Source: Candidatus Woesebacteria bacterium (GTDB lineage Bacteria > Patescibacteriota > Microgenomatia > UBA8517). From it: DNA of 64,000 nucleotides. Shown here piece after piece: positions 1 through 19,100 of this stretch. The position numbers and the translations under genes are program-made. The notes under the pieces were generated by a model. It had not been told where the DNA came from. It did not search any database and saw only the letters and a program-made list of their open reading frames with translations. Each line of letters starts with the position of its first letter. Position 1 is the first letter of the stretch. The stretch spans positions 304,463 to 368,462 of the forward strand of contig CP065002.1 in assembly GCA_016700095.1 (NCBI GenBank), read 5' to 3'.

Positions 1-581
1 CAAAGCATGGGAGATAGATGGCAAAGTTAAGTGCAAAGTTGTAAAAGACAGTTTAGGCCAGATGGCAATAGTGTTTGACTCTCCAACCGATAAGATGGAA
101 GAAGTTAGATTGGTTTATGGCAAGTAAGGTATACTATAAGAAAAGTATACAGGGAAGCTTAAATGCGGTTATTAACGATACACAACATTGATTTATGTGA
201 GCTGGTAGCTTTGGTTTCAATACTTCTACGATGAGCTTTTATTGCAACTTCGAGTAATCAATATACTCATGAATACATTAGTGTTTTCGTATACTTCTTC
301 TGATATTAGTAAATAACACACATATCATTTTTGCATTTGTTTCTCGTTTGAATTTGTCCATAAACGTTACCAGTAAACCCTCGCAATATTAACCGCACTT
401 AACTTCAACGATGCAACAACTATGCAAACTATAAGATATTAATTCAATCTTTCTCGTATTTTGAAGTCGGTCGAGATATTTCCTTGCCTTGCATCCAACA
501 TAATAATTACTTGACATACGTTACCCACTAAGTGTTAACATTAATTACTCAGCCTAATTTACGCACGAGGTAAATATTAAA

Positions 582-3500
582 TTGTTAACACTGCCCATGA
601 GAACAAAATTAAATAGCTCCCAGAAAATAGATATTATAAATAGGGCTCTTTCGGGTGGATCAGTCACTGAAATCTGCAAAGATATAGGTATATCTAGGGT
701 TTTGTTCTATAGATTGCTTCAGAGATACAAAAAGTATGGAGAAAAAGGATTAGAAGAACGTAAAAAAGGTCGCCCCAGAAAGTATAGAGCACAAAAATTG
801 ACAACTAATATTCAAACAACAAACAATATTATCTCGGCTCATGAGAGATTGCGCATGGTAGAAGAAGTTGTTAATGAAGGAAGGCGTCCATCAGTGATTG
901 CAAAGAAGTATCAAGTTTCAAGACCAACGTTATATAAATGGATCAAAAGATATAAAAAGTCTCAACAAACAAGAATTCATGCTGTCGAAAACAAAACCCC
1001 CAAGTATTCGAGGTACTATAGGCAAGCTCCCGAATTATATGAAGATGCTGTTTTGTCACTGGTTACTAAGTTTCCTGAATATGGTGTAAGAAAAATCGTT
1101 GCCAATCTTCCTCAAATTGGTAAAAAACCAATTCTTGGGCATCATGGAGTACAAAACGTTTTACAGCGCCACAATTTATCAACTCTAGATAGGCGTATGG
1201 CGTATGCCAAATCTCAAGAGACTGTTATCACAAGTTCGATTTCTGGTGCTCTTTCCAAAATCAATAATTTCTTTGCTATTCCTTTGGAAACTCGACAAAA
1301 GGTTGTGCGCTTTTCGGCAGTGTTTTTTTTAACATCTTTTTTCACCGTAGTCCTTTTTGGCATGGGTGGAGCTGTTACGACTACTTTTATTGGAGTTCCG
1401 CTCGTAAAACAAATCGGTTTAACTCTTGCGTTAGTTGCTCTATTTATGGGGTCGGTATTTTTTGTATATTCACTTAAATACTATCTTACACTTGTCATTG
1501 TACTTTCGTTTTCTCAACAAGAAGATACCAATACGCGCCTGCGCGGAAACATTCTCCATAAATTATTAGGCTTAGTTGATGAAAACACCGATAAATCTAA
1601 ATTGGATCAAAAGCAAGCTGTAGGTTTAACTCCAAATTTAGACCATATCAAATTATCTCGTTACCCGTTTATTTCTGTTCAGATTCCTTTCTATAACGAA
1701 AAAAACGTAGCTGAGCGCGCAATTGCGGCAAGTACAAATTTTGATTACAAAGGTGATTATGAAGTTATTGTTTGCGATGATTCCACGGATGAAACTTTTG
1801 AAATAGTTAGAAATTACCAAAAACAGTACTTAGCAAAGAATTGCCAGTTAAAAATAAGTAAGGGTGATGGCTGGGATATGTCCGAAGTTGAAGTCAGACC
1901 CGGAGTAATTCTTAAACACCTTCACAGAACAACGCGGAGTGGATATAAAGGTGCTTCGTTAAAACTTGCATTGACCTTGGTTGATAAAAGAACTGAATTT
2001 GTAAGTATTTTCGATGCAGATTTCGTGCCGTATCCCGACAGTTTGGATTTATTTTTGAAATACTTTAAATCACAAAACGGTGGATCTGAAAATTACACTT
2101 CAAATAACATTGCCGCAGTCCAAGGATATCAATGGCATGTATTAAATAAATCAGAAAACTGGATAACAAGGGGAGTAAGAAGTGAATATGCAGGAAGTTA
2201 TGTAATAGAAAGAAGTGGTCAAGAAATTTATGGAGGATTAAAACACATTTCAGGAAGTGTATATATGATTAGGCGCGATGTGTTGGAAGAAGTAGGATGG
2301 AGATCTTCGATCACCGAAGATTATGAGCTTACGCTTCGGTTATACAATGCAGGATACAAAGTAGTATATACCCCATACATTCAGGCTCCAGCTGAGTGTG
2401 TTTCCACTTTGAAAAGGTTAATCAGACAAAGGATGAGGTGGGCAGAAGGACACAGTTTCAATGTCAAACTTATGTGGAAGAAATTATTAATTGGAAGATG
2501 GGAGTTGGCTAATAGTTCATCCACTGACTCGCATCAAGTTCATTCTTTGCATGGTACTAAAATGATGCGGGATGACAAAAAGGTATTCATTCCTAGTCCT
2601 CTAACCGTGGCTGAGAAAGTTGAATTTGTATTTAACATTCCTTACTACCTTCAAGCATTTCTATTTCTAATCGGGACTTTTGCCTGGTTACTCTCAGAGG
2701 CTGTATTCCAGGTAAGACTGCCTTTCTGGACTACTGTTTGGGGTTGGAGCCTCATCCTTACCAACATGTTTTCCTTGCCTTTGGTTAACGCAGTCGGCCT
2801 TTTCCTGGAAGAAAGTGAGGAAAGAGACTATCTTGGGCTTTTGTCATTTGTGGCACTTAGTTATATATTGGTTCCATTTCAGGCTTATTCGTCAGTTAAG
2901 GGTTTTATTCAAAAAGAAGAAGGGCCCTGGTTTAGAACTCCCAAAACTGGAAGAATTACAGACGTTTTCGCCCGAGGCAGGTTTTATCGTTTTATATCAG
3001 GAATTTTGCCGAAAAATTCAGGTAATAGAAATGAGGCACTAAGCGACAGTCTAAATACTGGTGCCTATTCACAAATGTCCAACTCGTATTTGTCGATGGT
3101 TACGGCAAACAATATTTTTAACACCTTTTCGATAAAACGAAAAACACAACGGTGGGTAGGTAAGCTTGCCTTGACTTCAATGGTTGCAGTTTCAATGTTG
3201 ATTGTGAGTTATGCACCGTATATCCCAAGCGGAAAGGTGAGTGTTGCAGCAGCTAATACGGGGGCAATACTGGCAGATAAAGCAATTGACAGCGACCAAC
3301 CAGTTGTGAATAAAGCAGGTAAAGCGCTCAATACAAATAATTTGGAAACAAATAAGGATGGTTTTACATTAACCTCTGACAATAAAGACTTCAAGATTAC
3401 AGATTCACCAAGTTTTCGTTTACAAGCCAGAACGAATTTCAAAGATAGGTTGGCAATAAATTTCGGCAACATCTTTAAAGGCAAAAATGAAAAGAAGGCG

Positions 3501-6500
3501 AGAATAATTAATGCTAAGGTAGTTAACCATAAAGGCAATGAATATGACGTTGGAATATTAGACGATAAGAATGGATATGAACTAGTTGTTGATTCCAATA
3601 ACTTGTCTCCGGGGTTATATGATTTAGTTGTTGAAGACAATCTGGGTAATAGTATTGCACAAGATTTTAGTTGGGGAGTGCTGGCAATTAACACCAACAA
3701 ATCGATTTACACGAAAGGGGAGAATGCCGAGTTGTCGTTTGCCGTACTCAATGAAGATGGGGAAATGGTATGTGATGCAAAATTAGAATTAGGAATTAGA
3801 AATTCGGAATTAGGAATCGATGAAACACTGTCAACCAATGACGGCTCAATACGTGTGACTCCCGGGTGCAATAGTAAAGAAATGTTATTAACTCCCGATT
3901 ATGAAGCGGAATATAAATTGGGGAGTATGGGTATTTATGAACTTACTTTGACTGCTACTACACATAATGGAAGCTATACAATTACTGACTCAATTGAGGT
4001 TCGAAAATCGGTAGAGTTTGACATAGAGCGTATTAGTGCGACACGTATTTATCCACTTTTAACGTACCCCGTGATATTTAATGTTATCCCGGAAAAGGAC
4101 TTTCAAGGAGTAATCACAGAAACGGTTCCTGCAGACTTTGCGATTGTTCGGATTACAGACGAAGAACTGAAAAATTATAGTACTAAAGAAAACAGCGTTG
4201 GTTCAAGTAAATTCTTAGACATCAAAAAACAGGGTGGTGTAGGGATAATTGAATGGCAGGTAAATTGGAAAAAAGGAGAAACTTATCATTTTGGCTATAA
4301 ATATGATGCTCCGGATAAAAGCCCAGCTCTTTACACTTTGGGTCCTTTGCAAATTGATGATTTTAGTGAAGCAAGAGTTTGGCAGATAGCGGTGGATGCA
4401 ATTTCAGGTATAACCGCCCGCAATTATGCGGTTGAAAATAGTAGTGATACAACCATAGCGGTATCTCCGGATGCTGCTATTACTGTCGGAAAAATTGCGA
4501 TCGTTTCGTGTGTGACTGATAATACAGCAACATCTGATGGGCCATCCACAGACCATTCATTGAGCGATACTGACGGGCATACTTGGAACAAGGTATTTGA
4601 AGAAACTGATTCTGCCGGTGCTGCTGCTGATGGTTCAACCACCTCATTGTGGTGGACGAAGGTTACAAGTGAAATCGGGACAGGTGATTCAATTACTTTG
4701 ACGTTAGGAACTGCCCGATCGGACAAGATTATTGCAATTGTAGAAGCTACTGTCGGAGCGGGTAATACCTTTGTCGCGATCCCTTCATCAGCTATCGATC
4801 ACTCAAATTCAGCTACCTCTTTGTCTGATGTTCAATCCGGGCTTACTAACCGGGAATATCTATTTTTTGGCTTGTTTGGAGCGGAAGGTGAAGACACTGC
4901 TAAAACTCCTATTGCCAACTATACCGAACAACACGACCGAGTGAGTACGACAACAGGTACAGCTGCCGTCAATGTGCAAATGCATGTCGGCACCCGAATC
5001 CTTACAGGGACTGGTGACACTTGGACAAGTTCGGCAGTCACTTTTACTAATGGTATCCAGTCTCTGACAGCATTTTATGAAGTTTCAAGTACCATAACTG
5101 TTTCCGGAAATGTATATAATTTTGGTACTTCGAGTGCTCTTACTGAATGTGATGCAAGTGGAGCAACACATGAATTAAGTTTGAGAGTTGGATCAACAAC
5201 CTATACCACAAGTTGTGATGCTTCAGATTCAGGTGCATATTCCTTCACTTCAGTTACACCTCCCTCGGGTGGATCGGGGATGGTGGTTTGGATTGATGAT
5301 GCCGAAGCTTCCGAGACAGATGGTGCAGCAGTTATTCAATACGATGGATCAGGTGATTCAACCGGAAATTCTTTTTACGATGATGCCGTGACTATTCTCA
5401 CTGATGATGGCAGTGGTGTCACGATTGATATGATGGATGCGTATGACAGTGGCGGTGATGCAGACATTCCCTATACTGCTACAAGTGGATCCCCCGATAC
5501 GCTTACGGTTTCCGATAATTATACATTGCTTATACCTTCTGGTGAGGTGTTTGCTCCGGGAGGGAATTTAAATAACGGTTCGGGAGCCGGAATAGATAAT
5601 ATTAATATATCAGGAACCTATACCGCAGCTACCGGGGAATCGATACTCGTTTCCGGTACCTGGACCCAGTCTGGTACCTTCACCTCAAGTACTTCCACTG
5701 TCACCTTTGATGCTCCTGGTGCTACAACTGAGGATATTGTTACAACAGGAAGTGGAGCATTTAACAATGTTGTCTTTAATGATGGGGAAGGTGGTGCCAC
5801 TTGGGAGATTGAAGATCCTCTGGATGTGGATGGTAACTTTACCATAACAGGTGGGACAGTGGATGTTGTAAGTGGAGAAGATAATCAGATTAACGTAGGA
5901 GGAAACTGGACCAATGATGATACTTTTGTGGAAAGAAGTGGAAAGGTAGTCTTTGATACTTCAACTACTGCTACCCTAGATAGTAACTGTTCCGATGTGG
6001 GTACTTGTACCAATGAGAATTTCTACGACCTGGAACTATCCAAAGCAAGTTCGGGGAATACCGTTACTTTGACTAACTTTGGTATACGGGTAACTAATAC
6101 CTTAACCCTCACTACGGGGACTTTGGTGCAAGGAGCATATAATGTCCGGGTTGAGGGGGCAACTGCAGTATCAGTAGCCTCAAATGGTATCTGGAGTAAT
6201 ACTTCAACAGGAGACGTGATCCTTGGTGGCTCCTTTGCCAATAGTGGCATAGTAACCATGCAGGGAACAACAAGCGCTTGCGGAGAAACTGATGCAATTT
6301 CAATCACCTCAACTTCAGGTGGAAGTCAAAGGAGTTGGACTAGTTTGGGAGGTACTTTCAACATGAATGATGTTTCGGTCCAGGACCAGGGAGGAAGTGC
6401 TGCAATTACAGTTTACTCTGGTACCAACGTCAGTGGTAACAATTCCAACTGGGTGTTTGAAGATTGTGTTACCAGTTCTACATCTTCTTCTGCTACAGGA

Positions 6501-8333
6501 CATTCATTCCAAAGAAAGACATTCTACGATGATGAAAATGAAACCTTCTGGAGGTTTTACCATGATGGTGATGAAGTTGACATAGAATATTCTAAAGATA
6601 GTGGTGATACCTGGAGTTCTACTACTGCCTTGGCATATGACACCAATGACTTTTCTGTCTGGTGGAAAGCAATCACGGTTGGAGAAACCACCACTGAATA
6701 TGTATGGATGGCAGTTACCACGTCAGATGATATCCTGGTCAGACGCGGGACATTAGGATCAACATCAGTCACCTGGGACAGTGAAGCCAATGTGGTTTCA
6801 CTTAATGGCACAGGAGCATCTGACACCTACTCATACCCATATATTTCGTTGGATGATGCAAACTATATGTGGGTGGGAGCAAGACATTACAATGGAACTA
6901 ACTATACGTATAAGACAGTAAGAAGTGATGCTTCTGACACCGGTAATGCCACCTGGAGTGGAGTAGGCTTTGGTTCTACTGTTCCCGTATCCCAAGTATC
7001 AGCTGACCAAACAAATGCAAATGTCTTTGGCAACATTGTTCCACTTAATGGCCAAGACATGTATGCAGCCTTTGTCAGTAACACTCTTCTTCAGGGTTGT
7101 GTCTGGGACCACAGTGACGCTGCCTGGGAAGATAGTGATGGGGCAAGTTGTGTTAGTACCGGTGGAAGTGCACCTGTATTTCGTGGAGAATCTTCTTCAA
7201 CTTTTACAACAGCAGCCAGCGTTGTGGTAAATAAACCGACAGGGACAGTCGATAACGACATTATGCTTGCAATTATTTATAAGGAAAATACCGCAGCAGT
7301 AACAGCACCATCAGGCTGGAATTATATTGATGGAGAAACACCGACGACTGATCATGATGTAATTGTTTACTGGAAAAGGGCGAGTTCGGAAGGTAGTAAC
7401 TACACCTGGAGTTGGACAGGAAGTACTTGGAGCGGGGGAGCGATTATGTCATATAGTGGTGCGATAACAACAGGAGATCCGGTAAATACTTATTCCGCCA
7501 ACAGCGCCTCATCAGGACAAACCTTGACCGCAACGGGTGTGACGACAAGTGTTGACAACACGACAATTGTTGCTTTGGGAGCACATTGGAATACGGGTAC
7601 GTATTCAGGACCAACCGGATATACTGTTCGAGCAACACCTCAATCTATGAGGCTTTCTGACAAAACCCAAGCCTCTGCGGGGGCTACAGGAGATGCTGTC
7701 ATGACAACATCTGCAAACAGTTCATCCTGGACTGCACATTTGGTTGCACTCAAACCTGCAGGTACACCCGGGAGTAGAGATGCAATTGATACTGTACCAA
7801 GTGGATTAAGCAAAAATATATCGGCCGTTGTTGATACTACCAATTACGATGTTCACCTTCTTTTTGTAGACGATGAATCAACAGATCAGGTAAGTTACAA
7901 AAGATGGGACAAGATAAACCAGGAATGGGATGTAACTGCAACCCTAGTTGCAGGTGGAACAAGTGATACCGATGCTTACGTATCCCTCTCGTATGATACG
8001 GATGCAAGTGATCTTTACGCAATCTGGATAGACACATCTACAAATCACATCTTCTACACAGCTTGTGACATATCAACACAGTGCAGTTTGGCCAGTGACT
8101 GGATAGTAGGAGTAGAAGAGGAGATAGACTGGCATACAGAAACACAACCAACCAACTTAACCAGTAACTACTCAAGTGGAACCAATGTCTTTGCTCAGTG
8201 GTCTGATGGATCAGGTTCACCATACTCTGTTGAGTGGGATATCATTGTGGTGCCGGAGTGGATTTGGTTAATTATTGTTGCCGGTCCGATTTTGCCACTT
8301 ATGGGTAAATTTAGAAAGAAAAGACATCAATGA
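582..8333 (+). CDS. Giant fusion protein (2583 aa): N-terminal transposase-like HTH modules, processive GT2 core, TM bundle, huge surface region, C-terminal VPE-hydrophobic-basic tail
   Basis: Uninterrupted 7.75 kb ORF. HTH motifs: 'GGSVTEICKDIGISRVLFYRLLQRYKKYG' and 'RRPSVIAKKYQVSRPTLYKWIKRYKK'. GT2 motifs: 'IVCDDSTDE' (DxD), 'FDADFVPYPD', 'ITEDYELTL' (TED), 'QRMRWAEGH' (QxxRW). TM helices before and after the GT domain. About 1700 aa T/S/G/D-rich C-terminal region. Tail 'VPEWIWLIIVAGPILPLMGKFRKKRHQ'. Confidence 0.85.
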   Translation: MLTLPMRTKLNSSQKIDIINRALSGGSVTEICKDIGISRVLFYRLLQRYKKYGEKGLEERKKGRPRKYRAQKLTTNIQTTNNIISAHERLRMVEEVVNEGRRPSVIAKKYQVSRPTLYKWIKRYKKSQQTRIHAVENKTPKYSRYYRQAPELYEDAVLSLVTKFPEYGVRKIVANLPQIGKKPILGHHGVQNVLQRHNLSTLDRRMAYAKSQETVITSSISGALSKINNFFAIPLETRQKVVRFSAVFFLTSFFTVVLFGMGGAVTTTFIGVPLVKQIGLTLALVALFMGSVFFVYSLKYYLTLVIVLSFSQQEDTNTRLRGNILHKLLGLVDENTDKSKLDQKQAVGLTPNLDHIKLSRYPFISVQIPFYNEKNVAERAIAASTNFDYKGDYEVIVCDDSTDETFEIVRNYQKQYLAKNCQLKISKGDGWDMSEVEVRPGVILKHLHRTTRSGYKGASLKLALTLVDKRTEFVSIFDADFVPYPDSLDLFLKYFKSQNGGSENYTSNNIAAVQGYQWHVLNKSENWITRGVRSEYAGSYVIERSGQEIYGGLKHISGSVYMIRRDVLEEVGWRSSITEDYELTLRLYNAGYKVVYTPYIQAPAECVSTLKRLIRQRMRWAEGHSFNVKLMWKKLLIGRWELANSSSTDSHQVHSLHGTKMMRDDKKVFIPSPLTVAEKVEFVFNIPYYLQAFLFLIGTFAWLLSEAVFQVRLPFWTTVWGWSLILTNMFSLPLVNAVGLFLEESEERDYLGLLSFVALSYILVPFQAYSSVKGFIQKEEGPWFRTPKTGRITDVFARGRFYRFISGILPKNSGNRNEALSDSLNTGAYSQMSNSYLSMVTANNIFNTFSIKRKTQRWVGKLALTSMVAVSMLIVSYAPYIPSGKVSVAAANTGAILADKAIDSDQPVVNKAGKALNTNNLETNKDGFTLTSDNKDFKITDSPSFRLQARTNFKDRLAINFGNIFKGKNEKKARIINAKVVNHKGNEYDVGILDDKNGYELVVDSNNLSPGLYDLVVEDNLGNSIAQDFSWGVLAINTNKSIYTKGENAELSFAVLNEDGEMVCDAKLELGIRNSELGIDETLSTNDGSIRVTPGCNSKEMLLTPDYEAEYKLGSMGIYELTLTATTHNGSYTITDSIEVRKSVEFDIERISATRIYPLLTYPVIFNVIPEKDFQGVITETVPADFAIVRITDEELKNYSTKENSVGSSKFLDIKKQGGVGIIEWQVNWKKGETYHFGYKYDAPDKSPALYTLGPLQIDDFSEARVWQIAVDAISGITARNYAVENSSDTTIAVSPDAAITVGKIAIVSCVTDNTATSDGPSTDHSLSDTDGHTWNKVFEETDSAGAAADGSTTSLWWTKVTSEIGTGDSITLTLGTARSDKIIAIVEATVGAGNTFVAIPSSAIDHSNSATSLSDVQSGLTNREYLFFGLFGAEGEDTAKTPIANYTEQHDRVSTTTGTAAVNVQMHVGTRILTGTGDTWTSSAVTFTNGIQSLTAFYEVSSTITVSGNVYNFGTSSALTECDASGATHELSLRVGSTTYTTSCDASDSGAYSFTSVTPPSGGSGMVVWIDDAEASETDGAAVIQYDGSGDSTGNSFYDDAVTILTDDGSGVTIDMMDAYDSGGDADIPYTATSGSPDTLTVSDNYTLLIPSGEVFAPGGNLNNGSGAGIDNINISGTYTAATGESILVSGTWTQSGTFTSSTSTVTFDAPGATTEDIVTTGSGAFNNVVFNDGEGGATWEIEDPLDVDGNFTITGGTVDVVSGEDNQINVGGNWTNDDTFVERSGKVVFDTSTTATLDSNCSDVGTCTNENFYDLELSKASSGNTVTLTNFGIRVTNTLTLTTGTLVQGAYNVRVEGATAVSVASNGIWSNTSTGDVILGGSFANSGIVTMQGTTSACGETDAISITSTSGGSQRSWTSLGGTFNMNDVSVQDQGGSAAITVYSGTNVSGNNSNWVFEDCVTSSTSSSATGHSFQRKTFYDDENETFWRFYHDGDEVDIEYSKDSGDTWSSTTALAYDTNDFSVWWKAITVGETTTEYVWMAVTTSDDILVRRGTLGSTSVTWDSEANVVSLNGTGASDTYSYPYISLDDANYMWVGARHYNGTNYTYKTVRSDASDTGNATWSGVGFGSTVPVSQVSADQTNANVFGNIVPLNGQDMYAAFVSNTLLQGCVWDHSDAAWEDSDGASCVSTGGSAPVFRGESSSTFTTAASVVVNKPTGTVDNDIMLAIIYKENTAAVTAPSGWNYIDGETPTTDHDVIVYWKRASSEGSNYTWSWTGSTWSGGAIMSYSGAITTGDPVNTYSANSASSGQTLTATGVTTSVDNTTIVALGAHWNTGTYSGPTGYTVRATPQSMRLSDKTQASAGATGDAVMTTSANSSSWTAHLVALKPAGTPGSRDAIDTVPSGLSKNISAVVDTTNYDVHLLFVDDESTDQVSYKRWDKINQEWDVTATLVAGGTSDTDAYVSLSYDTDASDLYAIWIDTSTNHIFYTACDISTQCSLASDWIVGVEEEIDWHTETQPTNLTSNYSSGTNVFAQWSDGSGSPYSVEWDIIVVPEWIWLIIVAGPILPLMGKFRKKRHQ

Positions 8334-8914
8334 ATCAGAAAAAAGTATTTAAAGATATATTGATTGTGACGGCAATTGTATTGTCGCTACTTCCCGTTAT
8401 TGTAACTTTTAGTGCAATACTAACCACGCTTTTCGACAAATTAAGTTGGTATGTGTGGCTGCAACGCGAAGTTGTACCCGTGGAATCCAGAATGGTTGCG
8501 GTATTGGTGAAGGTTGTCGGTATCGATGCTCAAATTACATCACATATTAATTTTTCCATGGTGTTAACCAGGGGTGAGACAATAATTCCAGTTCAATTGG
8601 AATGGAACTGTCTTGGTTGGCAAAGCATGATTTTACTTGTTACTACATTTGTAACAGGTTTGCGTGGGCGCTACAAATTGTCGTCGAAAATTGAAACAGT
8701 GATTATTGGCATACTCGGGACGTTTCTGTCAAACCTTTTTAGAATGGCTTTTATTGTTACCCTCGCTTATTACTGGAATAGCTTCGCAGCGATGATAATT
8801 CATGATTATTTCGCAAGCTTTATTGCCGTAGCTTGGATGCTATTTTTCTGGTGGTTTAGCTATAGCTATGTGCTTGATGAAAAAATAGAGAGTAACTTAA
8901 ACGAAGTGAAATAA
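8330..8914 (+). CDS. Mini exosortase/archaeosortase-domain membrane protein (194 aa), XrtG-like candidate
   Basis: Start overlaps the stop of the upstream giant (ATGA at 8330-8333). 4-5 predicted TM helices. Conserved with the 14085 paralog: 'WNCLGWQS' (Cys), 'GLRG(R/N)Y' (Arg), 'SNLFRMAF'/'INIFRLVF' (N-x-x-R), 'HDY/HNY', and C-terminal 'SYSYVL(D/E)EK'. Confidence 0.55.
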   Translation: MNQKKVFKDILIVTAIVLSLLPVIVTFSAILTTLFDKLSWYVWLQREVVPVESRMVAVLVKVVGIDAQITSHINFSMVLTRGETIIPVQLEWNCLGWQSMILLVTTFVTGLRGRYKLSSKIETVIIGILGTFLSNLFRMAFIVTLAYYWNSFAAMIIHDYFASFIAVAWMLFFWWFSYSYVLDEKIESNLNEVK

Positions 8915-9335: not shown

Positions 9336-9941
9336 TCACTCAATACTTATGTAAACAATAATTAGTAATAAAATATCTATAACAATAAATATTACTAAAG
9401 AAATAATAAAGGGGAGTGGAACACCAAAATATTTTTTAGTTGCACTAATACTTTTTCGATTATTTGTGTTTGTATTTTCTAAATGATTATTTTGCGAATT
9501 TTCAGTAAATGTTTCTGCAGCATTTATGGAAATGGTTTTATTTGTAGATATATTATTTTGTGTTAGTGGAATATTTGAAGTTGTGGTGCTGGTAGTATGA
9601 CCCATATCTACTATGGGGCTATTTGTTACACCAGAAGGATTAAAGTTAGTTGTAACATTATCGGATAGTATAGATGTTTTACTAGATTCCTTTTTAATAT
9701 TTTGCTCATTATTAGACGATACAATATTTTCTGAACTGTTTATCGTTTTATCGGAAATAGCATGCACGTATTTATTGCCAAATAATTTATCGAGATCTTG
9801 TTTGGAAAAATACCTGTGTCCACCGGGAGAGCGATGTGTGTCAATTTTTCCTGACATCTCCCACCTTCTTAGAGTATCAACAGAAACCCCCAAGTATTTA
9901 GCGGATTTTCCTATTCCTAGCTTGTCTTCTGTAATTTGCAT
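9336..9941 (-). CDS. MerR/excisionase-type HTH protein with N/S/T-rich linker and C-terminal TM anchor (201 aa)
   Basis: N-terminal 'SAKYLGVSVDTLRRWEMSGKIDTHRSPGGHRYFSKQDLDKL' is a typical MerR-type HTH. It is followed by a low-complexity Asn/Ser/Thr region and a C-terminal hydrophobic helix 'FIISLVIFIVIDILLLIIVYI'. Divergent from the 10008 giant gene. Confidence 0.55.
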   Translation of the reverse strand: MQITEDKLGIGKSAKYLGVSVDTLRRWEMSGKIDTHRSPGGHRYFSKQDLDKLFGNKYVHAISDKTINSSENIVSSNNEQNIKKESSKTSILSDNVTTNFNPSGVTNSPIVDMGHTTSTTTSNIPLTQNNISTNKTISINAAETFTENSQNNHLENTNTNNRKSISATKKYFGVPLPFIISLVIFIVIDILLLIIVYISIE

Positions 9942-10007: not shown

Positions 10008-13000
10008 GTGGTGATACATTTGAAAAACAAAAGGCTATTGACCTTGGTCCCACATGGTGCTTACACTTTATATGAACCTAAAAATTGGTATATGCAAAAG
10101 ACTGCCCTAACCGCAAAACAAAGATTGGCATTAATGGAATTGGTTTATAAATATAATGAATCAGTTACGGTTTGTTGTAAGAAATTTGGTGTTTCAAGAT
10201 TTACGTTTTACAAATGGGCTAAGTTTTATAGTGTAGGGTTATCGAGAAATGAAAACTTAACCAATCTTCGAGATAAAAAACCAGCTACAGTATCTACTCT
10301 TAATGCAACTCCATACGAGGTACAAGAGCAAATAAAACGTATTGCTGCAGAGAAACCTGATTCTAGCAAATACGAGATTGCAAAAGAGCTTAGAGATCGT
10401 CTAGGAGAAAAAGCAGTTGGTGTTCATGGAGTATATAATGTATTAAAACGTTCAGACTTGACCACTCCTGAAGCAAGAAAGGAATGGCAGTTATTTGTTC
10501 AAGCGAAAAGTAATATTGTACTTACAGCACCCCAAAGGCTTGAAGTTATAACCAGATCAGAAAAATTAAACATCCCAGTAACTGTTGTTTGTCGTGATTT
10601 TGGAATTTCTAGACAAACATATTATAAATGGAAAAGAAGATGGGAAGAAGGAGGACAAGATATTGATACACTAAGAGATAAAAAACAGCAGTATGATCGT
10701 AGAAAATTTAGAATCGATAGAGAAAAAGAAAAAGCAATCCTTTCGGTAATAATAGAAACACCGGATTTATCAAAATATAAAATCGCAGAAAAATTAAGAG
10801 AACTTGGATATGCTGTTAGTCCTCACGGGATATACAATGTCCTCTTGAGGAACGGATTGAACTTACCTGAAGGCAGAATGAATTATGCAGCAAATCATTC
10901 GCAAACAATTGAAACTCCCTCAATTGAATGGACAAACCGCATTAAGTCATCGTTGGAACAGTTTTTGCCCACACTAGCGCCAGCGCCACCTCCAGTATTT
11001 AATATTATAATTAACTTCACTAAAACTTTTCTTGCTTCATCTGTCTTTGCCTTAGCCGTTTCTTATTCAAGTGTGTGGTGGTTGAATTTTTTACTAACCC
11101 AAACAACACATGTAGCTATTGGATTATTCTTTGCTACACTAGCTTTACTTACTGGATCGATATTTTTCCTTTATTCCTTAAAATACTATATAACCCTTGC
11201 GGTTGTACTTTCTTACTCGAAAGACCAAAATACTATCGGTATAGATAGTACAACTCCGTTAAAACAAAAAGGATTAATATCAAGGATAATCGGGTTTAAC
11301 AATAATACTAGTGTTGATGAAAATATTCCTGTTGGGTTAACATCGGATTTAAGTGGGATTAATATTTCTAAAAAACCATTTGTCTCAATACATATTCCTT
11401 TCTATAACGAAAAATATGTAGTAAGGCGATCAATCGAAACGGCTGTTAATTTTGATTATCAGGAGTATGAAATTATTTTATGCGATGACTCGACTGATGA
11501 TACTTCTACTATTATTAGAAACTATCAAATAGATCATTTACCAATTGGTGAAAAACTTGAAGTCGTTAGTGGTAAGGGATGGGAGATGGCAACAGTCGAA
11601 ATTCGTCCCGGTGTGTTTCTAAAACATCTTCATAGAATATCAAGGGGAGGATTTAAAGGCGGTGCATTAAAAATTGCCTTGGAATTGGTTGATCCAAGAT
11701 GTGAATTTATATCTGTATTTGACGCAGACTTTGTCCCATATCCAGATACTATAAACCTATTTCTTAAATACTTTAAAATACAAAACGGTATGTCGGAAGA
11801 CTATGCCAAAAGCGCAGTCGCCGCAGTCCAAGGCTATCAGTGGCATGTTCTTAACAAATCAGAAAACTGGATAACCAGGGGAGTAAGAAGTGAATATGCA
11901 GGAAGCTATGTAATTGAAAGAAGCGGTCAGGAAATTTACGGAGGCCTAAAGCATATCTCGGGAAGTGTATATATGATTAGAAGGGATGTATTAGAGAAAG
12001 TGGGTTGGAATACGTCTATTACCGAGGATTATGAATTAACACTTAGGCTTTATGATGCCGGTTACAAAGTAGTCTACACCCCATACATTCAAGCCCCAGC
12101 TGAATGTGTATCTACCTTAAAACGCCTAATCAGACAAAGAATGCGATGGGCAGAAGGACACAGTCACAATGTAAAACTGATGTGGAAGAAACTTCTATTT
12201 GGAAGCTGGGAAGAAACTGGTGGTTTATCTAACACTCCACACCAGGTTCTTGCTTCACAGACAACAAAATTGATGCGGGATGGCAATGCCGCTTATAGTA
12301 GTGTAGCGACATTGTCAAATTCTAGAAGTAGAATATTTGTTCCATCTCCACTTACCATTGCAGAAAAGATTGAATTTCTTTTCAATATGCCTTACTACCT
12401 TCAAGCATTTCTATTTCTAATCGGGACTTTTGCCTGGTTACTCTCAGAGGCTGTATTCCAGGTAAGACTGCCTTTCTGGACTACTGTTTGGGGTTGGAGC
12501 CTCATCCTTACCAACATGTTTTCCTTGCCTTTGGTTAACGCAGTCGGCCTTTTCCTGGAAGAAAGTGAGGAAAGAGACTATCTTGGGCTTTTGTCATTTG
12601 TGGCGCTTAGTTATATATTGGTTCCATTTCAGGCTTATGCTTCTATCAAAGGCTTTCTGGAAGACAAAGAAGGTGGGTGGTTTAGAACTCCTAAAACAGG
12701 AAGAATTACTGATGTATTTACAAGAGGCAGATTTTATAGGTTTATACAAGGAGTATTGCCCAGAAGAGGGGGTCAGCCTGCAGTAGCTGAAGCAGGTGTT
12801 TCTCAAGCTTATCTTGCACTTAATTCTGCCAACAATCAATTCAATTCATTTAGTATTAAACCCAAGAAAGTGTTCTGGTTAGGAAAAGCTTCGCTGGCTT
12901 TTGTTTTAATTGTTGTTATGTTATTGAACTCTCTGGCTTTTAGAGTAAAACCAGCTGAAGCTTGGTATGGTACAGAAGGTTGGTCGTATAGGATTAAACT

Positions 13001-14063
13001 GACTGTAAAAAACGGAAAAGTTGATGCAGATTTGTCAAACTTTCCGGTTTATGTAAATTTAGATGATTTGCCTGATGCTACTTTTTGGGCTCATGTTAAA
13101 TCTCTATGTGCTGATGTAAGAGTAACAAATTCTGGAGGATCAACAGAGCTTCCTATTGAAATTGTTTCCTGCGACACGACTGCAAAAACGGGTGAGATGT
13201 ATTTTAAAGCTGACAGTTTGGCAGATTCAACTGATACTGATTTTTATATTTATTATGGTAATTCGGGTGCTTCTTCCTATGAAGTTACCGACACCTATGG
13301 CAGAAATAACGTCTGGACTAATGGCTATGGTGGAGTTTGGCACATGGGCGGCGGAACATTGATCGATTCCAGCGGGAATGTCGGTAATTCAACAACACAA
13401 ACCGGTACGGAATATACGTCGGGAAAAGTAGGTATAGCAACAGATTATTCGGGATCACAGAGGTCAATTATGCCGACTGCCACGACAATAGACGAAGATG
13501 TATTGGATAGCTTAACTTATACCGTTTGGGTTAATAGTGATTCTACTTCGTGGGGCAGGCAAATGGAAAAAAGTAATCAATATTTTCTTTTGGGTAATTA
13601 CGCTGGGACTGGATCGGCCGGTCCTCTACTGAAAATTAGCGGCTCCAATCAGGTTGCGACTGTAGGTACTTTGAGTACCGGAACATGGTATCAGGTTGGT
13701 GGTAGATATTCTTATTCTGGCGGGACTACTGGAGTTCTTAACGCTATCTTGAATGGTAATATAAATGCTACAACAAGCAATCTATCTAATTACATAGATT
13801 CTGCAAATACTGGCCTGTATGTCGGTTCAGACGATTCAGGTGGTTATTTTAATGGTAAGATGGATGAGCTTCGAATTGCGTCTGTTGTTAGAACGACCAA
13901 TTGGCTATCAACCGAATACAACACTCTTAATGACACATCAACTTTTTATTCTCTTGAAGCGGAAGAGGAAGTGCCGGAGTTGGTTATTTTATTGCTGCCG
14001 TTAGCAATCTTGATTCCTTTTGTAGTTAAATATCATGAAAAAAGAAGGAGGCTAGTCGTATAA
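10008..14063 (+). CDS. Fusion protein paralog 2 (1351 aa): two transposase-like HTH, processive GT2, TM bundle, LamG-containing surface domain, VPE-CTERM-like tail
   Basis: HTH: 'VTVCCKKFGVSRFTFYKWAKFY' and 'VTVVCRDFGISRQTYYKWKRRWEEGG'. GT2: 'ILCDDSTDD', 'FDADFVPYPD', 'ITEDYELTL', 'QRMRWAEGH'. LamG signature: 'YFNGKMDELRIASVVRTTNWLSTEYN'. Tail: 'VPELVILLLPLAILIPFVVKYHEKRRRLVV'. The true start may be the downstream Met at ~10092. Confidence 0.85.
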   Translation: MVIHLKNKRLLTLVPHGAYTLYEPKNWYMQKTALTAKQRLALMELVYKYNESVTVCCKKFGVSRFTFYKWAKFYSVGLSRNENLTNLRDKKPATVSTLNATPYEVQEQIKRIAAEKPDSSKYEIAKELRDRLGEKAVGVHGVYNVLKRSDLTTPEARKEWQLFVQAKSNIVLTAPQRLEVITRSEKLNIPVTVVCRDFGISRQTYYKWKRRWEEGGQDIDTLRDKKQQYDRRKFRIDREKEKAILSVIIETPDLSKYKIAEKLRELGYAVSPHGIYNVLLRNGLNLPEGRMNYAANHSQTIETPSIEWTNRIKSSLEQFLPTLAPAPPPVFNIIINFTKTFLASSVFALAVSYSSVWWLNFLLTQTTHVAIGLFFATLALLTGSIFFLYSLKYYITLAVVLSYSKDQNTIGIDSTTPLKQKGLISRIIGFNNNTSVDENIPVGLTSDLSGINISKKPFVSIHIPFYNEKYVVRRSIETAVNFDYQEYEIILCDDSTDDTSTIIRNYQIDHLPIGEKLEVVSGKGWEMATVEIRPGVFLKHLHRISRGGFKGGALKIALELVDPRCEFISVFDADFVPYPDTINLFLKYFKIQNGMSEDYAKSAVAAVQGYQWHVLNKSENWITRGVRSEYAGSYVIERSGQEIYGGLKHISGSVYMIRRDVLEKVGWNTSITEDYELTLRLYDAGYKVVYTPYIQAPAECVSTLKRLIRQRMRWAEGHSHNVKLMWKKLLFGSWEETGGLSNTPHQVLASQTTKLMRDGNAAYSSVATLSNSRSRIFVPSPLTIAEKIEFLFNMPYYLQAFLFLIGTFAWLLSEAVFQVRLPFWTTVWGWSLILTNMFSLPLVNAVGLFLEESEERDYLGLLSFVALSYILVPFQAYASIKGFLEDKEGGWFRTPKTGRITDVFTRGRFYRFIQGVLPRRGGQPAVAEAGVSQAYLALNSANNQFNSFSIKPKKVFWLGKASLAFVLIVVMLLNSLAFRVKPAEAWYGTEGWSYRIKLTVKNGKVDADLSNFPVYVNLDDLPDATFWAHVKSLCADVRVTNSGGSTELPIEIVSCDTTAKTGEMYFKADSLADSTDTDFYIYYGNSGASSYEVTDTYGRNNVWTNGYGGVWHMGGGTLIDSSGNVGNSTTQTGTEYTSGKVGIATDYSGSQRSIMPTATTIDEDVLDSLTYTVWVNSDSTSWGRQMEKSNQYFLLGNYAGTGSAGPLLKISGSNQVATVGTLSTGTWYQVGGRYSYSGGTTGVLNAILNGNINATTSNLSNYIDSANTGLYVGSDDSGGYFNGKMDELRIASVVRTTNWLSTEYNTLNDTSTFYSLEAEEEVPELVILLLPLAILIPFVVKYHEKRRRLVV

Positions 14064-14084: not shown

Positions 14085-14657
14085 ATGAATAAAAATAATC
14101 AATTAACTAAAGATACTTTCAAACTATTATTAGTTTTATTGGTGATTGTTCTTTTAATATTACCCTTTGCGACGGCATTTAATGAATTTCTAACTGAGGT
14201 TGTGGAAAATATTGGATTTTATATGGTCATTCAAAGCACCCTTGTGCCGTACATGAGTATGCTAACGGCTGCAATATTGAATATTTTGCCCGGACTCGAA
14301 GTGGGAATATTACCTTATGGAGTGGTAGTTAACGGTATTGACGTGCGTATCACCTGGAATTGTTTGGGTTGGCAAAGCTTTTTGCTTTTTTTTGCATCTT
14401 TATTTGTAGGACTAAGGGGAAATTACTCTGGAAGTTCTAAAATTCAGGCTGTCTTGTTTGGTTTATTGGGTACATTTATCATCAATATTTTTCGTTTGGT
14501 ATTTACAGCCGCACTAGTTGTATGGTGGAGAGGATTGTTTGTTATTCTATTTCACAATTATTTTTCGACCTTTATCGCTATACTTTGGCTTATACTTTAT
14601 TGGTGGATTTCTTATAGCTATGTGTTGGAAGAGAAAGATGGGGAGATTAATAAATAA
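14085..14657 (+). CDS. Mini exosortase/archaeosortase-domain membrane protein paralog (190 aa)
   Basis: 21 bp downstream of the giant gene. Multi-TM. Shares 'ITWNCLGWQSFLL', 'GLRGNY' and 'NIFRLVF' with the 8330 paralog. Confidence 0.55.
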   Translation: MNKNNQLTKDTFKLLLVLLVIVLLILPFATAFNEFLTEVVENIGFYMVIQSTLVPYMSMLTAAILNILPGLEVGILPYGVVVNGIDVRITWNCLGWQSFLLFFASLFVGLRGNYSGSSKIQAVLFGLLGTFIINIFRLVFTAALVVWWRGLFVILFHNYFSTFIAILWLILYWWISYSYVLEEKDGEINK

Positions 14658-14861: not shown

Positions 14862-15167
14862 TTACAATAGACTTCGAAGTCGAAAGTCGGGAAAGAGTGT
14901 TTTTTGCAGATTTAGGTCATGACCTTTGGCTACCCTAATTGCTTCAAGAATTGTTTTTATGCCTGCGATGTTAAGTTTGCGTTCAAATGATAAATATTTA
15001 AGAAACTGCAAATCGTTAAGGTCTGCGACACTAAACATTCTTCGTTTGGTTTTGGTGCGGTGGGGAGTTAGAAGTCCCGCTTTTTCATAAGCCATGATAG
15101 TTCGTATATGCAATTCAAGCAGTTTTGCCGCTATGGAAATAGTCAGAATTGGTTGATCGTTATTCAT
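14862..15167 (-). CDS. MerR-family transcriptional regulator (101 aa)
   Basis: 'LTISIAAKLLELHIRTIMAYEKAGLLTPHRTKTKRRMFSVADLNDL' is a MerR-type HTH plus the start of a dimerisation helix. Confidence 0.6.
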   Translation of the reverse strand: MNNDQPILTISIAAKLLELHIRTIMAYEKAGLLTPHRTKTKRRMFSVADLNDLQFLKYLSFERKLNIAGIKTILEAIRVAKGHDLNLQKTLFPDFRLRSLL

Positions 15168-16113
15168 GTCGCAAAATATTATCCGTTACTTTTTTGGTTA
15201 ATATAATCATACTAACTTGATTACATAAAAGCGTCAAGAGAGTATTGATAAAACCGCTCTAATTGTTTACTGATTCCATGATAATACAATACATATTTGT
15301 TGATTACTTTTTATATACATATATTATATAAGTTAAGATTTATATACTTAGTATTCATATAATATTTTAGTCAGATATTATTATAGCTATATCCATTATA
15401 TCTTACATATAAATTATGTTATCTTTGCTATAAATACCTATATTAAGTTGCGTAGACAGCAGATATTTTTGTTTATCACACTTGATAAGTAACGGTAAAT
15501 ATTTAGCAATGGCAATATATGAGGCTGTTATATGAGTAAGGTTTATACCCAATTAGACATTTGAGATATTTCTGTAAGCATTAGGATGACTACAAATACT
15601 GACTTCGTAAAGACCTATATATATTTTTATCGTGAAAAATAGTTATCCACTTTAATGTGGAAAGTTTGTTTAGAAATAATACTAAGTAAATTGGTAATAT
15701 TTATGTGTAGCAGTTAGATATAAGTAGTCATTTGTAGCCACAGATGGCCTTTAGAATACAAATTAAGAAGATTCGAGTTTAAAAAGTATTCAAGAATTGG
15801 CAGTAGAAAGAGTAGTATCCAGCTTCAATAATCGACATAATCATCCAATTTAGAAAAATATCCGACAAATCGTGCCTAAAAATGTGCACACAATTGAAAA
15901 CACCCTATAATAGAATATAAAATATAACCTATAGATAATATAAATTTTTAAAAACTCGCTAAAATAAGGCTAATTGGATGTATTTTTTACTCAATAAAAT
16001 GCACATTAATTACCGCAAGAATTACCTTAGCTTTGACCTATATTCACCATTGACATGCGTTAGTATGGTTGGTAACAATATAGATAGTTAAATTAGCCAC
16101 GAAAGTTACACTT

Positions 16114-19100
16114 ATGTCTGCCCGATGTAAAAGTAAATATTCTCCAAGTGAAAAAGAAACAATAGTTCTGGAGTGCATTGGTAATAATAAATCAATAACA
16201 AAACTAGCCAAGAAGTATAAAGTGTCTAGGAAAACTTTATATTCGTGGCTGAAAAGATATAAAAACAGCGCAAATAGAAATAAAAATAAAGCCCTGGTGA
16301 ATGCTTATGTCAAAGGAAAAGATCATCCTAAAAGCAAAGTTAGTTCTATTAAATCTAAGGTTATTCGTATTGTAAGCGCACATCCAGAGTGGGGAGCGCG
16401 CTCTATAAGTAATGAACTAAAAAAGCAAGGCTGTGATATTGGATTTTTTGCAGTGCATACCTTTCTACAGTCGATGTCGATTGAAAGAAGAGATTTAAGA
16501 GAGAGTTTTGCCACTAATTATACAGGCCCCGGGAGATATATGCCTGATGTGAAGCTCGAGATTATTAACAAGTTTAGGCAGGGAGAAACTGTTTCCAGTC
16601 TTTCTGACAGTTACGCGATATCGCGAAAGACGCTTTATCAATGGATCAGAAAGATACAAAATATATCAGATGTTTCAAAATACGATTTGGCGGATGCTTA
16701 TGTATCGGGAGAGAAACATCCCTTCGCTGTTTATCCAAAAATCGAAGCTCACCTACTTAGTATTGTCAAAAAACACCCCGACTATTCGATTCACAAATTA
16801 GCCGAACTACTGCCTGTGTCGTCATGGACGGTTTGGTCGACGCTTAGCCGAAACGGTTTGTCTACTTATACAGAGCGTCAGCGGTTTGCAAACCAAGGTG
16901 GCGTGATAGGGAAGACGGACTATTCTCCACAGGTTAGAAGTACCCTGGAGCAGTTCATGCCCACTTTGGCACCGGCTCCGCCTCCGGTTTCTTCGTCCAG
17001 AATTAAAACGAATCTTAAACCATCATATAAACAACTTGCACGTCACTTCTTATTTTCCGCAATATCTTCGTTAATTGTTGCCTTAACTACTCGATACTGG
17101 GTGTCAATTTTAATATCTGCGAGCTCGTTTTCGGAAGGAATAGGCCTGGTACTGGCTACTGTTGCACTTTTCTCCGGAGGGATTTTCTTCCTCTACTCAC
17201 TGAAATATTATTTAACCTTAGCCGTTGTTCTTTCCTACTCGCAGGATGAGAAAGAAAATGCTGACGAGAAATCTCCCACTAAATTTATTTCATGGTTATT
17301 GGGGAAAAATGGGTCAAGCCATAATTTCGGCAAGAGTGGTTTAGAGCCGAACCTCGAGCATGTAAATCTAAAAAATCATCCTTACATCTCAGTCCAAATA
17401 CCATTTTTCAACGAGAAATATGTAGCCGAGCGTGCAATTAGTGCGGCAATTAATTTTGACTACAAGGGCGATTACGAGGTTTTGGTTTGTGACGACTCAA
17501 CCGATGAAACAACACAGATAATCAGGAGTCTTCAACAAAAATATTTACCCGACAACAAAAAACTAAAAATATTTATTAACAAAGAAGAAGGCTGGGAATT
17601 GTCAACAGTTGAGGTGAGACCGGGTGTCTTACTTAAACATTTACACAGGACAAGCAGGTCCGGATTTAAAGGAGGTGCTCTAAAAGTAGCGCTTAATTTA
17701 GTCGACCCAAGATGTGAATTTATTACCATTTTTGATGCCGACTTTGTACCATATCCCGATTCGCTTGATCTTTTCTTAAAGTACTTTAAGTTGCAAAACA
17801 ATGGCTCGGAGGATTATACACATAGTGATGTTGCTGCAGTTCAAGGATATCAGTGGCATGTTCTTAACAAATCAGAAAACTGGATAACCAGGGGAGTAAG
17901 AAGTGAATATGCAGGAAGCTATGTAATTGAAAGAAGTGGTCAAGAAATTTACGGAGGTTTAAAGCATATCTCGGGAAGTGTATATATGATTAGACGTGCG
18001 CCCTTAACCGAGGTTGGTTGGGATACTTCAATTACAGAAGATTATGAACTTACGCTTAAGCTTTACGAAAAAGGCTATCGAGTAGTCTACACCCCATATA
18101 TCCAAGCTCCGGCTGAATGCGTTTCCACCTTGAAACGCTTGATTAGACAAAGAATGCGATGGGCAGAAGGACACAGTCACAATGTAAAACTGATGTGGAA
18201 GAAACTTCTATTTGGGAGTTGGGAAGAGAAAGAGTCTGTTGGTAGTTCAAACAGCAAGTGTTTTGTCCCAAGTCCACTTACTGCGGCAGAAAAGATTGAA
18301 TTTCTTTTCAACATGCCTTACTACCTTCAGGCGTTTTTGTTTTTAATTGGAACATTTGCCTGGTTACTTTCGGAAACAGTTTTTCAAGCACGTCTTCCTT
18401 TCTGGACCGTTATTTGGGGTTGGAGCCTCATCCTTACCAACATGTTTTCCTTGCCTTTGGTTAACGCAGTTGGCCTTTTCTTGGAAGAAAGTGAAGATCG
18501 TGATTATGTCGGGTTGGTAAGTTTTACACTTCTTTCGTATATAGTTGTTCCATTCCAAGCATATGCATCATTAAAGGGATTCCTCGAGAAAGAAGAGGGT
18601 GGATGGTTTAGAACTCCTAAAACAGGAAGAATTACGGATGTGATTGCCAGAGGCAGATTTTATCGTTTTATATCCGGAATTTTGCCCGGCAAAGAAAATG
18701 TCAGTTCACTTGATACAAATTATTTGTCAATGGTTACGGCAAACAACATTTTCAACACCTTTTCAATAAAGCGAAAAACACAACGGTGGGTAGGTAAACT
18801 TGCCCTAACTTCGATGGTTGCGGTTTCTTTGTTAATTGTAAGTTTTGCACCATATATCCCTATCGGAAGAAACGGTGTTTTAGCGTTTGATGCAAACTCG
18901 ATTGTTTCACCTGGGGAGGCGAAACATACTTCGGATTTTTCTTTTGAAAATGAAACTAATAATTTTTCGATAACGGGACTTAGCCGTGATTTCAAAGTCG
19001 ACGAGGTACCGGGTTTTCATTTAGATGTAAAAACCGCACTTGTCGAACGCGTGCGTATTAACTTCAATCAAGTTATCGGTAAAGAGTTATCAAAAACAAT

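Follow-up and report, generated by a model that had tools for sequence, protein, structure and literature searches.

Three giant genes with N-terminal helix-turn-helix domains

We analysed a window of 64,000 nucleotides (nt) from Candidatus Woesebacteria (GCA_016700095.1, CP065002.1, positions 304,463-368,462 of the forward strand). All positions below are given in window numbering. The window contains three long open reading frames (ORFs) on the plus strand, which are continuous paralogs and are referred to here as the giants G1, G2 and G3. In each of them Pfam places helix-turn-helix (HTH) families at the N-terminus and a glycosyltransferase family 2 (GT2) domain downstream of these.

582..8333, plus strand: G1 ORF; the likely start is ATG 597, which gives 597..8333 and 2,578 amino acids (aa); TTG 582 is an in-frame alternative.
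10008..14063, plus strand: G2 ORF; the likely start is ATG 10092, 1,323 aa.
16114..26643, plus strand: G3 ORF; ATG 16114, 3,509 aa.

The order of parts in G1 is three HTH bundles, two transmembrane (TM) helices, the processive GT2 domain, further TM helices, an acidic extracellular region and a C-terminal VPE motif followed by a TM helix and a basic tail. Positions 582-1200, to which an earlier reading made from the letters alone (the sequence-only reading) had drawn attention, code for the first ~200 residues of G1 and enclose its three bundles, located at nt 621-1196. NCBI labels G2 as 'DUF2341 domain-containing protein [Candidatus Woesebacteria bacterium]', and the database labels for the HTH-GT2 family are 'glycosyltransferase/transposase', 'helix-turn-helix domain-containing' and 'DUF2341'.

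Identity and fold of the N-terminal modules

The sequence-only reading had claimed transposase-type HTH modules at the N-termini of all three giants, and the Pfam search that it proposed bears this out. HTH_28, HTH_23, HTH_29, HTH_Tnp_1 and HTH_32 score above the curated cut-offs across the N-termini of G1-G3, and each of the six modules passes when scanned one by one. In G1 the scores are 62.5 bits for HTH_28 (cut-off 25), 55.4 for HTH_23 (24.6), 50.5 for HTH_29 (28.1) and 42.7 for HTH_Tnp_1 (24.1). The motifs quoted at that time, IAKKYxVSRxTLYKWxKRY and YxVLxRxGL, are present as described.

621..779 (aa 9-61), plus strand: G1 HTH module A, a lone three-helix bundle of the first (PAI-like) type; HTH_28 43 bits (cut-off 25).
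834..1196 (aa ~80-200), plus strand: G1 HTH module B, a complete bipartite (PAI-like and RED-like) module of the IS481 type; HTH_23, HTH_28 and HTH_Tnp_1 pass.
10092..10901, plus strand: G2 N-terminal region with two bipartite HTH modules, four bundles; mean predicted local distance difference test (pLDDT) score 88.4; IS481 model 114.7 bits.
16114..16989, plus strand: G3 N-terminal region with two bipartite HTH modules, four bundles, from Pfam.

The recognition helix of module A is SRVLFYRL (nt 693-716), and a GRPRK linker comes after the module. Module B has the recognition helix SRPTLYKW (nt 918-941) and the second-type helix HGVQNVLQRHNL (nt 1143-1178); it matches positions 2-114 of the IS481 model with 86.9 bits (NCBIfam), and HTH_32 covers its aa 111-188 below the cut-off. 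Across the family a protein carries 1 to 2.5 HTH modules. Hundreds of members keep both the canonical signature of the recognition helix, SRxTxYxW, and the basic linkers. Since all six modules pass the Pfam cut-offs one by one and hundreds of homologs share the region, it is not a chance match.

As to the transposase family, IS630/IS3 had been named. The transposase type stands, and the nearest family is IS481, ahead of IS630 and IS3, which rank next. The top NCBIfam match of the modules is the IS481 transposase model NF033577, with 87-115 bits over profile positions 1-114 of 284, scores that are far under the family cut-off of 224 bits. In a tblastn comparison, the N-terminal parts of annotated IS481 and ISNCY transposases on plasmids cover 84-94% of one 129-aa module at 32-37% identity.

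The profile of 28 N-terminal regions, searched against the PDB, matches the RED and PAI subdomains of Sleeping Beauty and the Drosophila paired domain. The AlphaFold2 (AF2) model of the G2 N-terminus contains four three-helix bundles, and its best Foldseek matches are the paired domains of Pax6 and Pax5 and the DNA-binding domains of Tc3, SETMAR/Hsmar1 and Mos1, all of them solved on DNA. The E-values of these matches are weak (0.1-3), because the orientation of one bundle to another is free, and their ranking is consistent. The predicted fold is thus of the paired/Tc3 type and not the non-DNA-binding fold that the sequence-only reading had considered as a counter-case. The N-terminal HTH regions have a net charge of +18 to +30 and an isoelectric point (pI) of 9.7-10.4, and the C-terminal giant regions a pI of ~4.1. 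Judged by profiles and models, each module is a predicted paired-like, two-subdomain DNA-binding domain of transposase ancestry.

A fixed fusion rather than a mobile element

Similarity to transposase N-termini is the sole support for reading the arrangement as a mobile-element remnant or as an assembly or frameshift artefact, in which an IS481-like transposase gene was joined to a glycosyltransferase by insertion or by sequencing error. The three paralogous ORFs of the window are continuous, which speaks against this. So do the missing parts of an insertion sequence (IS): Pfam finds no DDE or rve domain in any window ORF of at least 150 aa, and there are no credible terminal inverted repeats around the G1 HTH region (window 130-1700), where just weak short arms, 73-88% complementary, occur. 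Both absences had already been noted from the letters.

The architecture also recurs in independent assemblies. The alignment of the 28 N-terminal regions was used in an exhaustive HMMER search of 1.84 billion representative proteins (clusters at 50% identity), which returned 323 proteins at E<=1e-30 and 1,835 at E<=1e-10. In all of the best 150 the match lies at the extreme N-terminus. Among these 150, the newly found proteins of ~450 aa or more all carry the GT2 core except two, which are apparently frameshifted, and the shorter ones are fragments that end within the HTH or TM region. The fusion is therefore present in at least 323 protein clusters, mostly from Microgenomates. A scan with an alignment of the N-terminus plus the glycosyltransferase (GT) domain over one genome per species gave 254 loci with family genes, most of which include the HTH region; tandem arrays are common. 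These loci belong to Woese-, Gottesman-, Chisholm-, Davies- and Curtissbacteria, other Microgenomates, CPR3 and one Nealsonbacteria bin.

Because the fusion recurs in at least 323 clusters, with GT2 in the members long enough to judge, it is a domesticated domain, neither an IS nor a frameshift. The preference of the sequence-only reading for domestication over an IS insertion is upheld, and the intact IS with a frameshift-fused transposase gene, which it had named as the contrary case, does not account for such recurrence. Conservation, the lack of a DDE domain and the lack of terminal repeats rule out an IS insertion or a frameshift artefact, and we give the remnant explanation next to no chance. 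We suggest that the modules are, very probably, domesticated DNA-binding modules of the IS481 type that have become a permanent N-terminal part of a processive GT2 synthase, on its cytoplasmic side.

Membrane topology and the synthase core

1299..1481, plus strand: two TM helices of G1 between the HTH region and the GT domain (aa 235-262 and 264-295), from hydropathy.
10998..11219, plus strand: two long TM helices of G2 (aa 303-336 and 339-376) in the AF2 model, preceded by an amphipathic helix and the LAPAPPP motif.
1671..2951, plus strand: processive GT2 core of G1, with CDDSTD, FDADF, ITEDY, RQRMRWAEG and WFRTPKTG.
8330..8914, plus strand: small exosortase/archaeosortase-family gene 3' of G1; TIGR04178 41 bits (cut-off 23) and a weak Exosortase_EpsH match.
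14085..14657, plus strand: small exosortase/archaeosortase-family gene 3' of G2; TIGR04178 37 bits (cut-off 23).

In the alignment of 28 N-terminal regions the HTH array is followed by a conserved amphipathic helix and, in most members, by LAPAPPP. Exactly two long TM helices then separate the array from the GT-A domain; this layout appears both in an AF2 model that covers aa 1-963 of G2 (predicted template modelling score, pTM, 0.57) and in the hydropathy of G1-G3. A GT domain of this kind needs the cytoplasmic side for nucleotide sugars. As exactly two TM helices precede the cytoplasm-facing GT-A domain, the HTH array is expected in the cytoplasm as well. The cytoplasmic location predicted for the modules, which the sequence-only reading had placed on a membrane glycosyltransferase, is supported by these two helices and by the net positive charge.

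The motifs CDDSTD, FDADF, ITEDY and RQRMRWAEG correspond to the D, DxD, TED and QxxRW motifs and are present in G1, G2 and G3. The GT cores are matched by Pfam Glyco_trans_2_3 and Glyco_tranf_2_3. Foldseek aligns the G2 GT model with E. coli BcsA (E = 1.6e-14) and hyaluronan synthase (E = 1e-10), and chitin synthases and CesA are also close. By motifs and model, the GT2 core is predicted to work processively and to translocate its polymer, as synthases of the BcsA/hyaluronan-synthase type do. The NCBIfam equivalog models PgaC, CelA and NodC are all far under their cut-offs for the GT2 domains of the giants.

The exosortase-family proteins encoded downstream of G1 and G2 are ~190 aa long, and the same gene order is repeated in loci L001 and L002. 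At the C-termini of G1-G3 (8250-8330, 13971-14060 and 26497-26640) VPE(W/L/N) is followed by a hydrophobic stretch and a K/R-rich tail. No curated CTERM model of NCBIfam matches these tails. Together, VPE, TM helix and basic tail resemble a CTERM sorting signal of a kind not yet described.

A family-specific promoter element

Upstream of the HTH-GT2 genes we find a promoter element that is specific for the family, TTGACA-N3-GTTACCCAC-N4-TGTTAACAT.

511..541, plus strand: G1 promoter, with TTGACA at 511-516, TAC, GTTACCCAC at 520-528, TAAG and TGTTAACAT at 533-541.
583..590, plus strand: second TGTTAACA palindrome of G1, 7 nt before ATG 597; the layout is the same in G1-type genes of other genomes.
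10038..10066, plus strand: G2 promoter variant, TTGACC and CCCAC-ATGG-TGCTTACAC.
16050..16079, plus strand: G3 promoter variant, TTGACATGCGTTAGTATGGTTGGTAACAAT.

The element recurs before family genes in many genera (loci L003-L123) and in metagenomes. Within the same loci it lies no more than 120 nt upstream of 38 of the 74 family ORFs, compared with 3 of 162 other ORFs (Fisher p = 8e-20); with these counts, the TGTTAACA motif is ruled out as a general promoter consensus of Microgenomates. In the 64-kb window the exact composite element occurs only before G1 and G2, and intergenic TGTTAACA only before G1 and G3. A metagenome scan for the 17-base pattern GTTACCCAC-N4-TGTTAACA gave 46 matches. 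About 21 of them have TTGACA three bases upstream and, where the flanking DNA suffices, all of these precede a family gene, two of them by way of a small ORF that comes first. The other ~25 have no -35 box and lie in unrelated surroundings that are richer in GC; they appear to be chance matches, and we did not count them as true elements.

The element is conserved far better than the adjoining coding sequence, and some DNA-binding protein must read it. It is ~21 base pairs (bp) long, non-palindromic overall, and overlaps the spacer and the -10 box. The spacer between -35 and -10 is 19 nt long in G1-type promoters, where it contains the partial dyad GTTACC...GTTAAC, and 17 nt long in G2 and G3. 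From its sequence, a non-palindromic composite site of this length would suit a bipartite PAI+RED module.

Two further observations concern the starts of these genes. In many G1-type genes CTGCC(C) stands in place of a Shine-Dalgarno sequence before the start codon (591-596 in the window; also L015, L027, L041 and L101). In some genomes the called start is an ATG within the promoter element (ATGGTTGGTAACA), which creates spurious 'MVGN...' N-termini (P0003, P0027, P0029 and P0037).

The N-terminal slot in relatives and among paralogs

The same GT2 subfamily, with cores 50-70% identical, bears other N-terminal domains in other lineages. An HTH of the MerR/HTH_17 type occupies the synthase N-terminus in other Patescibacteria (L075:2473-4896 and L077:2344-5088) and in Dormibacterales P0263, and Chloroflexota homologs have a receiver (REC) domain there, with or without MshEN of the cyclic di-GMP type. 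Many forms of ~790 aa have no N-terminal domain. From these comparisons the synthase N-terminus looks like a swappable regulatory slot. Relatives in which the N-terminal domain is swapped include P0224, P0225, P0229 and P0263.

The occupants of the slot bear on an alternative in which the HTH bundles have no role on DNA and are a cytoplasmic module for protein interaction, oligomerisation or allosteric gating of the synthase, comparable to the RING domain of plant CesA or the PilZ domain of BcsA. The signal-input domains REC and MshEN in the slot of the Chloroflexota homologs agree with it, and so do the conserved amphipathic helix and LAPAPPP, which tie the modules closely to the first TM helix. 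However, two unrelated DNA-binding HTH folds were recruited to the slot independently, which argues that DNA binding is the property selected there. The retention of SRxTxYxW and the basic linkers in hundreds of members, the net charge of +18 to +30, and closest structural matches that are all DNA complexes also speak against this alternative. We consider a non-DNA role unlikely.

The paralogs differ in how their two halves diverge. Between the N-termini of G1, G2 and G3 the identity is 27-31%, while each of them reaches 44-56% with proteins of other genomes. For the GT cores the relation is reversed, with 74-77% among G1-G3 and 58-74% to the same foreign proteins. In the part that codes for the extracellular region, G1 and G3 share tracts of 1,510 bp (5644-7153 and 23394-24902) and 473 bp (7785-8257 and 26032-26504) at 99.8-99.9% identity, whereas their 5' ends have no DNA similarity. 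The near-identical tracts indicate recent gene conversion between the paralogs. Paralogs that exchange sequence yet keep old, distinct HTH types form the pattern that specific recognition would predict. N-termini that are distinct within a genome and conserved across genera point to specific recognition rather than to generic tethering.

MerR-type neighbours

9336..9941, minus strand: MerR/excisionase-type HTH protein with a C-terminal TM helix, i.e. a membrane-anchored MerR-type protein, divergent from G2.
14862..15167, minus strand: HspR-like MerR-family regulator, 101 aa, divergent upstream of G3; HspR model 67 bits, below the cut-off of 105.

Orthologs of the HspR-like gene lie divergently 0.7-1.4 kb upstream of family genes in ~25 of ~60 loci. 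Promoters controlled by MerR proteins typically have an over-long spacer of 19-20 nt with a dyad operator. The other MerR-type gene has a perfect 14-nt direct repeat, ATTTGCATAGATAT, at its start (9934 and 9954).

These neighbours enter an explanation in which the modules tether and do not control a gene. The modules would bind DNA specifically or loosely and so hold the synthase at the nucleoid, or attach the chromosome to the membrane, while the MerR/HspR-like neighbour runs the promoter. Noc and RacA link DNA to the membrane in a comparable way. The DNA-binding fold and strong positive charge of the modules fit such tethering, their number (1 to 2.5) suggests avidity, and the divergent MerR-like genes of many loci and the 19-nt spacer with partial dyad of the G1-type promoters would be accounted for as well. 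On the other hand, the N-terminal type of each paralog is conserved across genera and distinct within a genome, and the 3-kb upstream flank of about half of the motif-bearing loci contains no MerR-like gene, although one copy could serve an array. Tethering alone seems to us rather improbable.

Proposed function

We suggest the following mechanism. The modules very probably descend from the DNA-binding region of an IS481-type transposase, whose catalytic domain and element ends were lost long ago, and have become fixed in a Microgenomates family. Each module, with its two predicted three-helix bundles and basic linker, sits on the cytoplasmic N-terminus of a membrane-embedded processive synthase, which in turn is fused to a giant extracellular region and a putative C-terminal anchor of the exosortase type.

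If, as seems likeliest, the modules are sequence-specific DNA-binding domains, the synthase would be a membrane-tethered one-component regulator or 'trigger enzyme', in which the state of the synthase or of its surface part is coupled to whether particular sites on the chromosome are bound. Foremost among the candidate sites is the promoter element of the own gene, GTTACCCAC-N4-TGTTAACAT, across the spacer and the -10 box, together with the TGTTAACA box at the start codon in G1-type genes. Binding there would exert feedback control on expression (autorepression). The analysis shows what the domains are, their predicted fold and topology, that the fusion is conserved and IS features are missing, and that the promoter element exists and is specific to the family; we infer that the modules bind DNA, where they would bind and in which direction they would regulate.

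The sequence-only reading had put forward autoregulation, DNA tethering and protein interaction side by side; the circumstantial evidence gathered here leans towards specific DNA binding. The parts of this proposal differ in strength. The modules probably still bind DNA. That they act as the sequence-specific binders of a membrane-tethered regulator-enzyme, with the own promoter element as the best candidate site, we hold to have about an even chance. That their target is in fact the family promoter, so that a membrane-tethered regulator-enzyme regulates its own gene and each paralog is insulated by its own HTH type, is a tentative proposal.

Several points weigh against the proposed regulator-enzyme. 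The conserved element may belong to the HspR/MerR-like regulator and not to the modules of the giant, because a MerR-like gene is divergent in ~25 of ~60 loci and the 19-nt spacer contains a partial dyad. Two readers of the element could thus be considered, the modules of the giant and a MerR-family regulator. Promoter type and N-terminal type adjoin on the DNA, so linkage could explain why they segregate together. Distinct N-termini could equally arise where gene conversion ends before it reaches the 5' end. Finally, the REC and MshEN forms indicate that the slot can also serve as an input to the enzyme; as the N-terminal domain of those homologs is a signal input, the HTH modules could by analogy act on the synthase and not on DNA.

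Other features of the window

The AT-rich non-coding stretches upstream of the giants are unusually long for a small genome (15168-16113, and also 130-596 and 8915-9335). They contain no Rfam family in a scan of the window and no convincing ORF. In other loci a comparable gap, of 0.7-1.4 kb, lies between the giant and the HspR-like gene.

49509-63934, minus strand: three further giant ORFs of 1,925, 2,022 and 889 aa.

The first of these minus-strand giants carries seven LamG-type (Laminin_G_3) repeats and DUF2341. Evenly spaced shadow ORFs of 154 aa on the plus strand (60821, 61776 and 62730) suggest tandem repeats of ~955 bp.

Comparison with known systems

The modules resemble the N-terminus of IS481 (and IS630/IS3) transposases in their succession of an HTH_28/HTH_23-type bundle, a basic linker and an HTH_32-type bundle, with 32-37% identity over the whole module. 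Unlike an IS481 transposase, the giants have neither DDE/rve domain nor inverted repeats, and the module is duplicated in tandem and fixed on a membrane enzyme across a bacterial class. With the paired-type domains (Pax, and the PAI+RED domains of Tc3, Mos1 and Sleeping Beauty) they share the predicted fold and the layout of two subdomains. In contrast to these, the modules of G1-G3 are bacterial, membrane-tethered and up to two in series, and their DNA binding is predicted. The Pax and CENP-B domains are regarded as domesticated DNA-binding domains of transposases.

The giants are also similar to the membrane-bound regulators ToxR, CadC, TcpP and ArnR, which consist of a cytoplasmic N-terminal DNA-binding domain, a linker, a membrane span and an extracytoplasmic part (for the archaeal ArnR: PMC7496328, PMC6396743). 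However, the ToxR type has an OmpR-type winged helix, whereas the Pfam matches of the giants are HTH_28/23/29/32 and HTH_Tnp_1, not Trans_reg_C. Moreover, the giants have, in place of a simple sensor, a processive glycosyltransferase that spans the membrane several times and bears a giant surface domain.

The trigger enzymes PutA, BirA and NadR combine an enzyme and a DNA-binding domain in one chain, and PutA alternates between membrane and DNA. The giants likewise hold an enzyme and a predicted DNA-binding domain in a single polypeptide, in which the catalytic state could set expression. The three trigger enzymes are soluble or peripheral; to our knowledge, none of them is a polysaccharide synthase and none has a transposase-type HTH. 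As the HTH class differs and the membrane part is a multi-span synthase, the giants are not members of the ToxR/CadC/ArnR or PutA types.

With BcsA-PilZ and plant CesA-RING the giants share the GT-A core with D, DxD, TED and QxxRW, the TM channel and the presence of an accessory cytoplasmic domain, of the kind that controls or organises the enzyme. Unlike in BcsA and CesA, this domain is an N-terminal HTH array, and an extracellular giant domain and a putative exosortase signal are present in cis. The exosortase-family gene directly downstream and the VPE, TM helix and basic tail recall the GT2 systems associated with XrtG and XrtP. The matches here are weak only, to XrtG (TIGR03110) and, for the GT2 region of the giants, to the XrtG- and XrtP-associated GT models (TIGR03111 and NF053846). 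The difference from those systems is that synthase, putative exosortase substrate and predicted DNA-binding domain are one polypeptide. The giants belong to the processive GT2 synthase superfamily and to an exosortase-linked system; they are not IS481 transposases.

No published description of the HTH-GT2 fusion was found in full-text literature searches. The fusion is real, not an artefact, and undescribed as far as checked. We place it either with the processive synthases, as a variant in the accessory domain, or with the membrane-tethered regulators, as one whose putative DNA-binding domain comes from a transposase.

Significance for Microgenomates

Microgenomates are uncultured and have tiny genomes, and little is known of their gene regulation or of how they build their surface; bacteria of the candidate phyla radiation (CPR) have few conventional regulators. 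In the family described here one chain unites a predicted DNA-binding array with a synthase that makes glycans processively, a surface domain of great size and a putative exosortase signal, and the family is widespread, often with several tandem copies per genome. The pipeline labels 'transposase', 'helix-turn-helix domain-containing' and 'DUF2341' are misleading for it. The highly conserved family-specific promoter element makes the idea of DNA binding directly testable.

If the modules bind DNA, the protein would connect the synthesis of surface polymers, or contact with a host, directly with transcription. The family would be a clear bacterial example of the domestication of a transposase domain, comparable to Pax and CENP-B in eukaryotes. 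If, in addition, the autoregulation is true, a synthase and surface adhesin would report its state of assembly or activity directly to its own gene, and a domesticated transposase domain would still recognise a site that resembles an 'element end', which now serves as an operator. Within the CPR, the family would then stand for a new class of one-component systems tethered to the membrane.

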